Shown here: piece by piece, positions 9,325-59,500 of the stretch | How positions within the stretch are numbered: position 1 is the first letter of the stretch | How the letters are laid out: the number at the start of each line of letters is the position of its first letter | Assembly: GCA_964016885.1 (NCBI GenBank) | Contig: OZ024746.1 | Location: 80,104,001 to 80,168,000, forward strand | Origin: Eledone cirrhosa | Lineage: Eukaryota | Direction of reading: 5' to 3' | Length of the DNA: 64,000 nt | Notes under the pieces: model-generated | The model's input: the letters and a program-made list of their open reading frames with translations, nothing else | Database searches by the model: none | What the model was told of the DNA's origin: nothing | Program-made: the position numbers and the translations under genes

Positions 9325-9756
9325 ATGGAAAGTTATATTTAAAATTGTTGGGTTACAACTAGTAAATATTTATAACTGATATAAAAGCACTCGACAAATA
9401 TTTGGAGTATATTTACAATATTAAATAAATGGAAACTATATTTATAAAACCATATTTATTTCATTATATATATTTCGGGGATATCATATTAACAATATGC
9501 TATGCCTTCCTCAGACAAAATACAATATAAACAGTTTTATATATAAATAGATTCGACATACCGTTATAACACCGACTTGCATTTGAAGAGGTTAAGCTGG
9601 CATTTGAAGAGGTTAAACTGCCAGCTTAACCTCTTCAAATGCAAGTCGGTGTTATAACGGTATGTCGAATCTATTTATCTATAAAACTGTTTATATTGTA
9701 TTTTGTCTGAGGAAGGCATAGCATATTGTTAATATGATATCCCCGAAATATATATA
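9325..9756. mobile_element. Penelope-like pLTR fragment, family A, fold-back
   Basis: Near-perfect inverted arms 9465-9602 / 9619-9756; homologous to 32450-32635 and 41620-41822; embedded in TA; contains hammerhead motifs. Confidence 0.7.
9457..9522 (-). ncRNA. Type I minimal hammerhead ribozyme motif (family A)
   Basis: TATTTTGT-CTGAGGA-stem II(...CATATT gtt AATATG...)-GAAA-TATATA-TA/ATGAAATA; stem I pairs with G.U; A.C at 10.1/11.1. Confidence 0.65.
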
Positions 9757-10402
9757 TTGTATATATATTTATATATATTTATATATATATATATATTTAT
9801 ATATATATATATATATATAAATATATATATATATTTATATATATATATATGAATGTGTGTGTGTGTGTGTATGCATGCATGTATGTTTCTCTGTATGTTT
9901 GTATGTATGTATGTGTGTATGTTTGTATATTTGCATGTATATTGGAAAATGACAGGACTGTTGGAGTGGCTTCAGAGGTTTTAACAAGAATTGTGGTCGT
10001 TCCTGGTAGTTTATGTGTTTGGTGGAGAGGACAATTTATTGTTGTTGCAAATGACTTCAATGTTGTCAAGTCTTTTTTAAAAAGCATTAACGATTCTTTA
10101 AGATTCTGTATATTTTAAATGAATTTATGGCGTTTTGAGGCAAAAGGAACAATATTCGGATATTATCAGATGTCGTAATGTTTCGGGTAGTTTCCAGTAG
10201 TTTCGGGTTGGTTTTGGCAACATTACAACTCCCTAGAGTCTTCCAGTTATTAAAACGGATTGGTGAATCTCTAGATGTGTCATATGTATGTATGAAACAG
10301 TTCTAGTCCTGTAAAGGCCATTTCTATATTAAATTTGTTATATATACATATATTTATATATATATATATATATATATATATATATATATATATATATATA
10401 TA

Positions 10403-10462
10403 TAATTATAATATGTCCAATAAATTCCTTTCGTCGCAACACTGATTCTCTTTTTTCTGTGA
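10403..10462 (+). mobile_element. Family J 3' fragment in TA tract
   Basis: Reverse-complement match to 56017-56075. Confidence 0.65.
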
Positions 10463-10760
10463 TATATATATATATATATATATATATATATATATATATA
10501 TATATATATATATATAGTTCAAGGAGACTACAAACTGATTTACAAAATGTTTTATTAATTTCACGCTTTATATTAAAAAAAGGAAAGAAAGTTCGATGTA
10601 TCTGACTTAATCCCTTTTTCAGGAATATAAAATAGAGACAGCATCGCAAAGGAGGAACAGAAAAAAGGTCCTAGTAAATAAAAAATATATATATATATAT
10701 ATATATATATATATATATATATATACTGTATGTATATATATATATAGAGAGAGAGAGAGA

Positions 10761-11130
10761 GAATTCACAAGAATCAAAGTTATGTTCAAATCATTTATTC
10801 ACTTACAATTGTTTCATCCAAACCTAGGCTTGGAGTCTTCGGAGCATTTTTCAATGTTTGTACACATAATTGACCTCCTTTCCAACGCAAGAGACATATA
10901 GATACATATATATATATATATTGATGTACAGTGGAGTGGCATATATTATACTATACTGTTTTTGTACAGCAATTCGAACATAACAGCAATTTGAACTTAA
11001 CTTTGATTCTTGTGAATTCTATGTAACTGCTCAGTAGAACAACTGATGTTATTACATTGAGCTATTTATCTTACTGGTAATAAGGTAGTAATAAATTACT
11101 GAGCTTCACTGTTTATGGTTTAAAATATAC
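10761..11130. mobile_element. Family I pLTR-like fragment with inverted segment
   Basis: 10761-10791 is inverted relative to 10989-11019; hammerhead motif on minus strand. Confidence 0.55.
10800..10846 (-). ncRNA. Minimal hammerhead motif, U4C variant
   Basis: TGCT-CCGAAGA-C-TCCAAGCC ta GGTTTGGA-T-GAAA-CAATTG-TA/AGTG, followed by AATAAA. Confidence 0.55.
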
Positions 11131-11244
11131 ATAACTCTAAAAAGTTTTAATATATACATAACCATAAATAGTATCCCTAATATTATATATATATATATAT
11201 ATGTATATACATATACATATATATACATATATATACATATATAT

Positions 11245-11327
11245 ATGTATGTATGTATGTATGTATGTATGTATGTATGTATGTATGTATGTATGTATGT
11301 ATGTATGTATGTATGTATGTATGTATG
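11245..11327. repeat. (ATGT)n tetranucleotide
   Basis: Direct inspection. Confidence 0.95.
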
Positions 11328-56016: not shown

Positions 56017-56180
56017 TCACAGAAAAAAAGAGAATCAGTGTTGTGACAAATGGAATTTATTGGACATATTACAATCGTTTCTCGAGGCACGATCTGTGAT
56101 ATCATACTCTGCTCTATGAGAGCATCGAGTGCCTATACGGCCTACCGCATACGGACGCTTTAAGCATCCAACACCAATTA
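56017..56180 (-). mobile_element. Family J fragment with hammerhead 3' half
   Basis: Minus strand aggcac...gtgcctcga-GAAA-CGATTG-TA-atatgtccAATAAA. Confidence 0.55.
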
Positions 56181-56264
56181 TATATATATATATATATATA
56201 TATATATATGACGTGTATACATATAAATATATACATACACACACACACACACATAAAGGGGCCA

Positions 56265-56472
56265 GAAGTTCAGTGTAGTAGATATAGAGATAGGGGGGAG
56301 AGTTTAGTGTTAATTAATACAGAGAGGGGGATTGGAAGATAGTTCCGTGTAGTAGATATAGAGAGGGTGAGAGTTTGGGTTTATTTAACACAGAGAGGGG
56401 ATGGAAGAGAGTTCTGTGTAGTAGATATAGAGAGGGGGAGAGTTCGGTGTTAATTGATATAGAGAGGGTGAT
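56265..56472. repeat. About 70-bp tandem repeat, 3 copies
   Basis: gtgtagtagatatagagag...agagttt..tgttaatt..acagagagggg recurs. Confidence 0.8.
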
Positions 56473-58299
56473 TCCTTATTTTTGTATTTCTTTCAGAACT
56501 TTCTTGTATTTATAATGCACTCAAAGCGAAACACTATACCTGAAAGCGAAACCATGCGTTTCTCTGCTTGACGTCAAAGATTATTCACTAAAATATTGTG
56601 TATAAGGTAAATGGGGCCTTTAATACCCGATGGAGCATGTCTCTCTTCAGGTCGAAACATAGCGGATTTCGTGACAGAGATAAAGATACAAAATCAGAAC
56701 CCAATTACTGGATTGATATTTTATTTTATCGTCCTCGAAAGGATGATAGGCAAAATTGACTTCGGGAGGAGTTGAACTCAGAATGCTGTAAATCAGAACA
56801 AATACCGAGGCATTCTTAATCCGACGCTCTAATGACACTGCCAATTCGTCGCCTTCATTAAAAAGGTGTTTGATTTACAATCAAACAGCGGAATGTAGTA
56901 TGATTGGTTTTCAAATAAATGTTTCTAAACGGATACTGCAGGATAACTCTCAGATAATCTATAGTAAGTACTACGTCAATTCATTAAACGGGAGTATATT
57001 TTCGTCATTGTTGTTATTACACTGTATCATTCGTCTTGAGTACAAGTTAATAAATATTGTTGTTAACTCTGTATCACCCTTGATCGAATAAATGTTCTGA
57101 CTCTGACTAGAGTAAATATCAAAGTAGAGTAATGTAAAAGAAAAACAAAACAAACGGTAGTTTACATTTTTTTAAACATACATCTCATAATATTTCGAGG
57201 TTAGGACTCTTTTTCAAAAAAATAAATAAATTGAATGTGGGATTGGTAATGGGCGTCGCTCTGCTACTTGTTGATTTCGAGTGAAAGTAAACTCTACAAC
57301 TGTAAAGATTCTATGTCGTATTGACTCCAGCAAATATAATTTCAAAGGCGGTATTGGGCGGAGTGGAAGGTGGCTATTACTTTTGTAACTCGACAGCAGT
57401 GAATTACAAACAAAACGTTGAACCTTACCTACACTAAGTACAAAGTCAATTGAACTACTAACTTACAGTTTTGTTGCCACTCGCCAAAACAACAAAAATA
57501 TTTATTTTATTTTATGCTTTTATTTTATATTTTATTTTATATTTTTTTAATTTTTCGGTGGATTGTCTTGCCGTCGTTTGATGTTTTCAAACTATACAAG
57601 AACCAATCGCTAACACACGTTTAATTAATTGGAGCTTTTCATAAAGAGAACAAAAGGAAGAATAAAAGCTGCCACTGATACTCATGGTACGTTTTATTCT
57701 TATTCTTGTTATAATTCTTATTATTTTGGTCATTGATATAGCTTTTACTGTTGTGCTTATAATTGTTGCTGTTGTTATAACTATAATTGTTGTTATTGCC
57801 ACTGTTATTGTTATTATTATTGTTGCTATTACAGCTAAGGCCACACAAGAAGCAACTGTTGACCTATTATTCTGCTTGAGCCTACGCAGGTGTTTATCTT
57901 TATTATTCCGCCAGAAAATAACATGTTAACTTCTCTCCAACGGTGTCGGAGTCGGCAATAGAACAGAGAAACATATTTCACAGCGCAACCTTCACCCAAT
58001 TTATTTATTTATTTTCAAGCTGTTAGACAAGATTGAAAACTTGTTTAATTATTAACCATGCACTCTCAGCTTACGGGCTATATTTTGTTTTATATATTTT
58101 GATTTTATATATTTCTTTTTCCAGTTCAAACATTCTTTTTTTTCTCTCCTTCTAATTTCTTTTCTTTATATATTCATTTATTTCTTTGTTTATACATTCC
58201 TCTATCTATTTACCAATCGACCAATTTTAGTGCATATATATATTTATATTTATACACCCACACATACACATACACACACATACACACACACTCACATAC

Positions 58300-58945
58300 A
58301 CACATGTATATGTATATATATATATATATATACATATATATATATATATATATATATATATATATATATATATATATACATATATATACATATATATATA
58401 CATATATATACATAGATATATATATATATACATATATATATGTATACATATACAATGTATACATATATGTATACATATATATATATATATATATATATAT
58501 ATATATATATATATATATATATATATCTGTATATATATATATATATATATATATATATATATATACATATATATACATATATATATGTATACAAGTATAT
58601 ATGCATATATATATATATATATATATATATATATATATATATATATATATATATATATATATATATATATATATACATATATATACATATATATATGTAT
58701 ACAAGTATATATGCATATATATATATATATATATATATATATATGCATATATATATGTAGATATGTATATATATATATATATATATATATATATATATAT
58801 ATATATATATATATATATATATATATATATATATATATATATATATACATATATATACATCTATATACATATATATATACACACACACACACACACACAC
58901 ACACACACACGTACATATATGTATATATATATATATATTTATATG
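58300..58945. repeat. (TA)n compound microsatellite
   Basis: Direct inspection. Confidence 0.95.
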
Positions 58946-59388
58946 TGTGTGTGTATGTGTATGTGTGTGTTTATGTATGTCTTTGGGTGTGTGAATTAAG
59001 ACTCCCATATCCTCATAGTAACACGTTCCGATATGTCTACCTTGAGGTATACAAACACAAAAGAGGTCCATGAACACATTTAACGATAGCTTAAAATGTT
59101 CAGAGCTTCAACAATTGGCCACATGATTAATTCAGAATACAAAATGTCACAGAAAGCAAACATATGTGTATATATATATATATGTGTTTGTATATATGTA
59201 TGTATATATGTATGTATATATATATATATATATATATATATATATATATATATATATATATATATATATATATATATATATATATATATATCTAGAGAGA
59301 GAGAGAGAGAGATATATATAGATATAGATACACACACACACACACACATATATATATATATATATATATATATATATATATATATATA

Positions 59389-59500
59389 TAACGAAGGAAA
59401 TGTGGTAAGGAACCAGATGGACCATAACGCACCAAAGTACTCAATACTTAGGGTAGTAGAGTGGGTAATAGGAACGAGTAGGACCCCCGACGTTCCTATA
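59389..59500 (-). mobile_element. Family C copy
   Basis: Nearly identical to 17258-17355. Confidence 0.75.

Follow-up and report, generated by a model that had tools for sequence, protein, structure and literature searches.

The role of the hammerhead ribozymes of Penelope-like retroelements (PLEs) is described as unclear by Craig et al. (2021, PMC8557442). In the study of an anole PLE (PAc; Frangieh et al. 2024, PMC11167929) genomic insertions end at two internal sites at which the reverse transcriptase (RT) starts; the ribozyme could be dispensed with in vitro, and none of the RNA reads is reported to begin or end at the cut. Other work describes an internal promoter in Penelope (PMC2377424) and a hammerhead core variant, U3-A8, in Cercyon PLEs (PMC4209133). 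Here we analyze a 64,000-nucleotide stretch of the genome of Eledone cirrhosa (assembly GCA_964016885.1, contig OZ024746.1, positions 80,104,001 to 80,168,000, forward strand; hereafter the window), which is rich in TA microsatellites flanking short repeats, many of them palindromic. Judging from their sequence, these repeats are ends of PLEs that bear Hydra-clade motifs and have inserted into TA microsatellites, in most cases in the form of hairpins. The regular boundaries of the copies differ from the predicted hammerhead cut; about 1-2% of the copies of one family, family C, begin exactly at it and form a sharp minor peak.

Families A, C and J keep the labels of the initial annotation of the window, family G is the repeat at 54.4-55.2 kb, and positions within a family are counted from the predicted hammerhead cut, the base that follows it being +1. 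In the 3.0 Gb genome searched, 27,372 sites match a 22-mer of the family C tail exactly, which is a lower bound on the copy number of the family, and the patterns for families A and J have 16,809 and 1,862. All 30 family C copies chosen by the tail alone run from a TA tract through a short inverted arm, a variable apex and a long arm to another TA tract; 95 of 110 adjacent inverted pairs join a long to a short arm and only one joins two long arms. Within these 95 pairs the short arm reaches further 5' in 46, the long arm in 27, and the two are equal in 22, while the arms of one insertion differ at 0.79 positions as against 2.98 between insertions (58 pairs). The best matches to the family C copy of the window had prompted a reading of the repeat as a fixed unit of the miniature inverted-repeat transposable element (MITE) type, which was dropped because copies sampled without bias vary at the apex. 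The tails measure 80 nt in families C and J and about 89 nt in family A, twice the 30-40 bp quoted for PLEs.

One locus, L087, holds an autonomous form of family C: its tail runs into an open frame of 786 codons; on the downstream side a repeat terminates at +17, and on the upstream side an inverted copy terminates at +97. The frame carries RT (YRDD) and C-terminal GIY-YIG (VIY...YIG) motifs, SDKT and a CxCx5C linker; its GIY-YIG core has one cysteine, CxxC and CxH surround the E and N residues, the motif scan gave no CCHH, and RWR stands at residue 104, where the Hydra clade has an N-terminal RWK. A family A frame shares the CxCx5C linker and CxxC. Searches of the family C open reading frame (ORF) against Pfam and against solved structures gave no match, and it has 2,054 homologues, nearly all unnamed, the best of about 700 aa; the top one carries PF01541, which we take to be GIY-YIG. 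The locus presents a single ORF with RT and GIY-YIG endonuclease, as in endonuclease-bearing (EN+) PLEs, within a partial tandem with pseudo-LTRs (pseudo-long terminal repeats), an inverted 5'-truncated copy and a tail at one end. By the motif scan (DKT, the CxCx5C linker, CxxC with CxH, no CCHH) and by insertion into (TA)n it would belong to the Hydra clade. We assign the repeats to PLEs because the RT/GIY-YIG frame motifs, the inverted copy and the one-sided tail are known for this group. Other PLE frames lie near family C copies in L111, L039, L042 and L034, those in L111 and L039 resembling another clade (a GLPMGS motif; in L111 a GIY-YIG core with two cysteines), and in L014 an inverted family C arm of more than 1 kb meets the long arm at a discontinuous junction.

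Families A, G and J have canonical type I hammerheads, with CUGANGA and GAAA cores, three stems, of which stem III is short and palindromic, and a UH cleavage site. The predicted family C ribozyme has a stem I of ACCCC/GGGGT, a stem III of 5-6 bp and A at core position 8; among the 11 loci with long copies it fits the type I definition solely as the U3-A8 variant, in six, the remainder having an unmatched C3-A8 (four) or G3 (one). At gathering score Rfam gave no match in the window, and in a scan by E-value microsatellite matches dominate among the 150 of 579 rows listed. A descriptor search of 1.55 Mb of genomic loci returned 120 matches, comprising at least a dozen hammerhead families, whose printed examples read through the site.

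Copy ends and the predicted cut

We aligned 282 distinct family C arms to three real long copies, after dropping 18 of 300 as duplicates or matches at a locus edge. Their 3' ends fall at +20 in 102 arms (a true +17 extended by TAT microhomology) and at +97 in 123, counts that favour the long end in that most loci were chosen by the tail; none of the 282 ends between -5 and +4. The 5' ends are spread over a broad peak between -26 and -46, and of 146 long arms only six have their start within 3 nt of the cut, against 3.8 expected (P=0.18). In 50 hairpins of a strict pattern no arm extends beyond -45; the modes lie at -37, -41, -40 and -35, and two show an A-run stutter. The apices of hairpins L109 and L116 have long A/T runs by -41 to -43, as if RT had stuttered at a template end starting with U. 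Most family C copies begin downstream of the core and lack its CUGA half.

For family A we used patterns, as BLAST ends are unreliable in AT-rich sequence (the window arm was aligned through the TA tract). By these, 46 of 47 arms read through the site, 45 by the pattern itself and one by a variant, the sole exception being the plus arm of the window; of 57 read-through arms, 29 meet the first TA tract at +48-57 and 22 at +137-142. For family J the ends lie at about +52 (short terminus about +51) and about +132, and 24 of 34 of its arms keep the site by a strict pattern, most of the other ten being variants. In the family J loci L171-L200 the 5' ends cluster some 110-125 nt upstream of the cut, at GGAAAATCTGC, which lies upstream of the whole ribozyme, unlike in family C. 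The end positions of families C, A and J match the picture of two start sites drawn in PMC11167929.

Rare junctions were sought with targeted genome-wide patterns, as classes of 1% are invisible in 146 arms. Among breaks between -15 and +9 (100 listed of 1,281 matches, of which three intact indel variants were set aside), the fullest bin is +1, with 14 of 97, and -14 and +6 come next with 10 each. A second pattern, a TA tract followed by C or G and an anchor, captured starts flanked directly by TA (100 listed of 141 matches); with 20 hairpins, two internal deletions and one repeat row set aside, 27 of the remaining 77 listed begin exactly at +1. Only two begin at -1 or -2, eight other G positions without microhomology have 0, 1, 1, 2, 5, 3, 1 and 2 starts, and T positions with microhomology have 6-7. 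The binomial P for the +1 starts is about 1e-14, calculated with 25 after removal of two likely duplicates, and a script run on the first 30 rows placed 12 at +1, two of them falsely through a C-to-T variant, in agreement with the count by eye.

The same base is favoured inside hairpins. Where both arms reach +1 (50 of 456 loci), 20 stop there with 1-6 untemplated bases between the arms, six are perfect and ambiguous, and 24 continue into templated upstream sequence; among these 50 no symmetric stop with filler occurs from -1 to -7, and single-base fillers are T or A in seven of seven and C or G in none. With a pattern open to both sides of the cut, applied to small hairpins (the first 50 of 716 loci, overlapping the set of 456), the furthest base is +1 in 31, +2 to +7 in 10 and upstream in nine. 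The 31 comprise 16 with both arms at +1 and filler, five perfect joins and 10 with one arm at +1, as against one symmetric filler join elsewhere; by script, eight of the first 15 have both arms at +1 with filler. At G000:C2:200613469-200613548 two family C arms, both from +1, are separated by just a TA run. Scaled up, the class would comprise some 440 hairpins and some tens of TA-flanked copies, about 1.6-2% of the 27,372, a rough percentage given that the patterns differ in strictness.

The evaluation of the 5' peak covered families C and G, the sites of A and J being indistinguishable from TA tracts. In family G a GGG run that is not a cut site drew one of 100 listed starts (114 matches), which indicates that G-runs as such do not attract junctions. 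The genome-wide histogram of copy ends proposed in the initial annotation, which was to speak against a role of cleavage if no peak stood at the site, thus gave a sharp 5' peak at +1 in family C and no clear one in family G.

Origin of the copies at the cut

Taking together the end positions, the long-plus-short hairpin layout, the autonomous family C element and the +1 peak, all of them directly observed, we consider it likely that two RT starts and a probable transcription start set most ends, and that the 1-2% of family C copies at the predicted cut derive from self-cleaved RNA. By analogy with the anole PLE work, the PLE protein would nick both strands of a TA tract and prime two complementary DNAs (cDNAs) at two internal start sites, namely +17 and +97 in family C, about +49 and +138 in A, and about +52 and +132 in J. 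Both cDNAs would extend to the template's 5' end and be joined head to head. The usual template would start at about -41 to -45, probably at a transcription start inside the stem II loop, and, lacking the CUGA half, could not cut itself in cis. Read-through RNA would hold the whole ribozyme, and the 3' product after the cut would retain both start sites, giving copies with arms that end at +1, often followed by untemplated A/T from run-off. With somewhat better than even confidence, we further posit that the +1 class represents several hundred fossil insertions from hammerhead-cleaved PLE RNA: the U3-A8 core would cut in vivo, its 5'-OH product would template twin-primed insertion, and, with the promoter inside the ribozyme and only read-through RNA being cut, the ribozyme would filter read-through transcripts rather than make the main template.

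Several observations weigh against this proposal. The variant A8 core makes the activity of the predicted family C ribozyme uncertain, and the modelled minimum-energy fold of a long family C copy forms stems I and III and not the stem II of the ribozyme. The template start near -41 to -45 is suggested solely by the end positions and by a resemblance of the sequence there to the initiator consensus. Family G has 13 strict starts at its own site as against 11 and nine at positions of equal TA microhomology (all 89 matches; P=0.29); the lack of a clear peak there fits the low activity reported for minimal hammerheads, but leaves the +1 result resting on one family. A subfamily that often has the unmatched core makes up 12 of 58 of the +1 copies as against 23 of 71, a depletion that is not significant (P=0.17). 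Furthermore, the junctions were tallied by eye on the rows listed, which are the first places in contig order, and the check by script covered 30 rows of the break tally, 30 of the TA-flanked starts and 15 of the two-sided hairpin set.

The same PLE mechanism could also leave an edge at +1 in family C for a reason other than the ribozyme, such as an RT stop at the base of stem III, a minor transcription start or a host nuclease. A stable stem III hairpin does stand immediately upstream of +1, the peak occurs in one family only, whose core is a variant, and 51 deletions that skip this hairpin exist genome-wide. However, pairing in stem III ends at -2, so that a structural stop should leave -1, yet the counts of two starts at -1/-2 and 27 at +1 are the reverse of this. 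The stop of both arms at one base with untemplated filler, in 16 of the 50 small hairpins, fits a physical RNA end; the family G control speaks against an attraction by G-runs; and decay of CpG cannot produce the class, C and G being absent as single fillers. We therefore regard a cause other than the ribozyme as unlikely but not negligible.

The initial annotation had proposed a far broader role, with self-cleavage defining the templates that are reverse-transcribed and hence the boundaries of copies in general. What survives of this is the minor family C class, with +1 as the top bin of the breaks around the site; as a general rule the idea is already refuted by the family C end histograms, in which no 3' end lies at the cut and few long arms start near it. 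The reading through of the site by nearly all family A arms and by printed examples of at least a dozen other hammerhead families, together with the missing CUGA half of most family C copies, leaves the general version very improbable. Scarcely any credence attaches to a view of the hairpins as DNA elements of the MITE type, or as fold-backs of DNA, that are copied whole and whose ends have nothing to do with RNA. The fixed outer ends, the TA flanks and the greater likeness of arms within one insertion would suit it, but the apex varies from copy to copy, an 80-nt tail makes the two ends asymmetric, and the autonomous RT element has both ends in common with the hairpins. Moreover, the short arm reaching further than the long one in 46 of 95 pairs is impossible for a fold-back of the long arm, and argues equally against the fold-back of one cDNA.

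Repeat copies in the window

The copies of the window that had first suggested cleavage are weak evidence for it: a rare internal deletion is the best reading of two, another two are ambiguous, and the fifth is an island present in a single copy. The family A insertion (9321..9759, both strands) has its long arm on the minus strand, reaching 9321 and containing a complete hammerhead (9457..9521) that reads through to 139 nt beyond the predicted cut. The short arm on the plus strand holds a minimal hammerhead (9700..9756; CTGAGGA core at 9707, GAAA at 9745-9748, predicted cut 9756/9757) without the 3' strand of stem I. The match of this arm was described as stopping exactly at the cleavage site, and the letters do stop at 9756, the arm reading GAAATATATA-TATTG-TA tract; however, the TTG and TA tract that follow are the normal short terminus of family A (AATATTG|TATA). 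Because of this, and because a TTG interrupts only nine of 13,620 TA tracts, an internal deletion between ATAT microhomologies that kept the terminus is most likely, and not a cleavage boundary, in a family of which 46 of 47 arms read through. A further family A arm (32450..32634, plus strand) reads through the site to the normal short terminus.

The family C hairpin at 17259..17423 has a long arm on the minus strand (+97 at 17259) and a short arm on the plus strand (+17 at 17423), with an apex near 17368-17383 and without the 5' half of the hammerhead; the GUC site is intact in the short arm (17404..17407, predicted cut 17406/17407). In the long arm the junction at 17355/17356, where the copy was said to resume exactly after GUC, is real, but it is an 11-nt internal deletion with 1-nt microhomology whose right edge lies at the predicted cut. 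The best genomic matches of the copy are mostly of 175-176 bp, the nine inspected all retain the deleted segment, and this type of junction accounts for two of the 51 deletions of the family C hairpin genome-wide. Some 20 of those 51 could have their right edge at +1; since the hairpin is lost and microhomology present in nearly all of them, they were left uncounted as evidence of the cut.

A family C mini-hairpin (59391..59496, minus strand) has a long arm to +97 at 59391, a 6-nt remnant of the short arm at 59491-59496 and an apex within 4 nt of the predicted cut. It had been noted to start about 4 nt before GUC, and the letters bear this out: GGAACG, the short inverted remnant, is followed by TC and five G. 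The cut-site reading is ambiguous, as the start may include bases upstream of the cut or filler that mimics these. The solo short arm of family J on the plus strand (10405..10461, predicted cut 10410/10411, +1 at 10411), which ends at the fixed short terminus of the family, was likewise correctly described near 10403 as starting about 6 nt before its site, but with TA-like sequence on either side of the site the start can be placed only within -7 to +4. The island said to end at GUA, a degenerate hammerhead-like sequence (32659..32740, plus strand; previously 32655-32729), does have GAAACACGTGTA at 32718-32729; neither the genome search nor the 1.55 Mb of genomic loci contained a second copy by which its end could be defined, and the GTAT that follows GUA might pair with ATAC at 32666-32669 as stem I.

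Elsewhere in the window lie a family G PLE hairpin (54441..55158) with a minimal hammerhead at 55003-55033, which provided the second test family and the G-run control, a family J long arm with its 80-nt tail (56018..56178, minus strand) that reads through the site, and a diverged family C fragment (61024..61067, plus strand). Family B (16837-17209 and 41388-41587) has a long-plus-short hairpin layout like the other families, a degenerate region resembling a hammerhead (stem CCAAC/GTTGG) and, near the short end, a second CTGATGA; inspection by eye revealed no UH site. Further palindromic or tailed repeats of like layout, with TA flanks, occur at 47740-47941, 47974-48448, 49874-50101, 55362-55514 and 55582-55896; 55632-55665 and the 48.3 kb repeat are members of hammerhead families from the descriptor search, and the upstream flank of L015 bears a palindromic insertion of the 49.9 kb family with a tRNA-like sequence at its centre. 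A repeat of about 190 bp resembling a short interspersed nuclear element has some 14 copies in the window, including 1814-2010, 4389-4717, 12869-13427, 17442-17624, 29264-29422, 34474-34656, 35192-35386, 46951-47241 and 62881-64000, and two fragments at 30962-31367 and 40217-40615, 74% identical, resemble pieces of the frame of a long interspersed nuclear element.

Relation to described systems

The C-terminal EN+ PLEs of the Hydra clade (PMC8557442) share with family C a single ORF of RT and C-terminal GIY-YIG, DKT, CxCx5C, the absence of CCHH, CxxC/CxH, TA-repeat targets, hammerheads and a truncated inverted copy that has a tail on one side. Family C differs in having RWR rather than RWK, a repeat unit of about 3.1 kb, tens of thousands of tiny hairpin copies, tails of 80-90 nt in its group of families as against the 30-40 bp given there, and copies starting at the predicted cut, a class that we did not find described there. 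The Poseidon PLE PAc (PMC11167929) likewise has two internal RT start sites that match the genomic ends and define the tail, cutting and extension of both target strands, AT-rich targets and a hammerhead upstream of the start sites; it belongs to another clade by its motifs, and the absence of RNA ends at its cut contrasts with the minor class of family C. The PLE hammerheads of Cervera and de la Pena (2014, PMC4209133), including that of Schistosoma Cercyon, share the type I layout with a long stem II, the short palindromic stem III seen in families A, G and J, the U3-A8 core seen in C, and motif pairs on opposite strands 100-700 bp apart, whereas the stem III of family C, at 5-6 bp, could form in a monomer and its stem II loop measures about 40 nt. 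Non-LTR retrozymes (10.64898/2026.07.22.740005; PMC7229834) are also non-coding high-copy repeats with type I hammerheads related to PLE ends, but rather than tandem units each with a full hammerhead, the present copies are single arms or inverted hairpins, in family C mostly core-less, with an autonomous parent.

In our search of the open-access literature we found no report of a peak of genomic ends at a PLE cut. The elements are of a known kind, and the part of interest is the +1 peak as indirect in vivo evidence on the role of the PLE hammerhead. A family with at least 27,372 copies provides enough events for a class of 1-2% to show, and end histograms might offer an inexpensive way to read ribozyme activity in vivo in any PLE family of high copy number. 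The data also support twin priming from two fixed sites as the origin of the inverted repeat and the tail. If the proposed origin of the class is true, it would imply cutting in vivo by a U3-A8 PLE ribozyme that acts as a filter on read-through transcripts. In R2 with a 5' ribozyme like that of hepatitis delta virus (review PMC6765202), the insertion takes its 5' end from the one left by self-cleavage of the template, as we propose for the +1 class; there it is the main route, whereas in family C it would be a minor one that employs another class of ribozyme.

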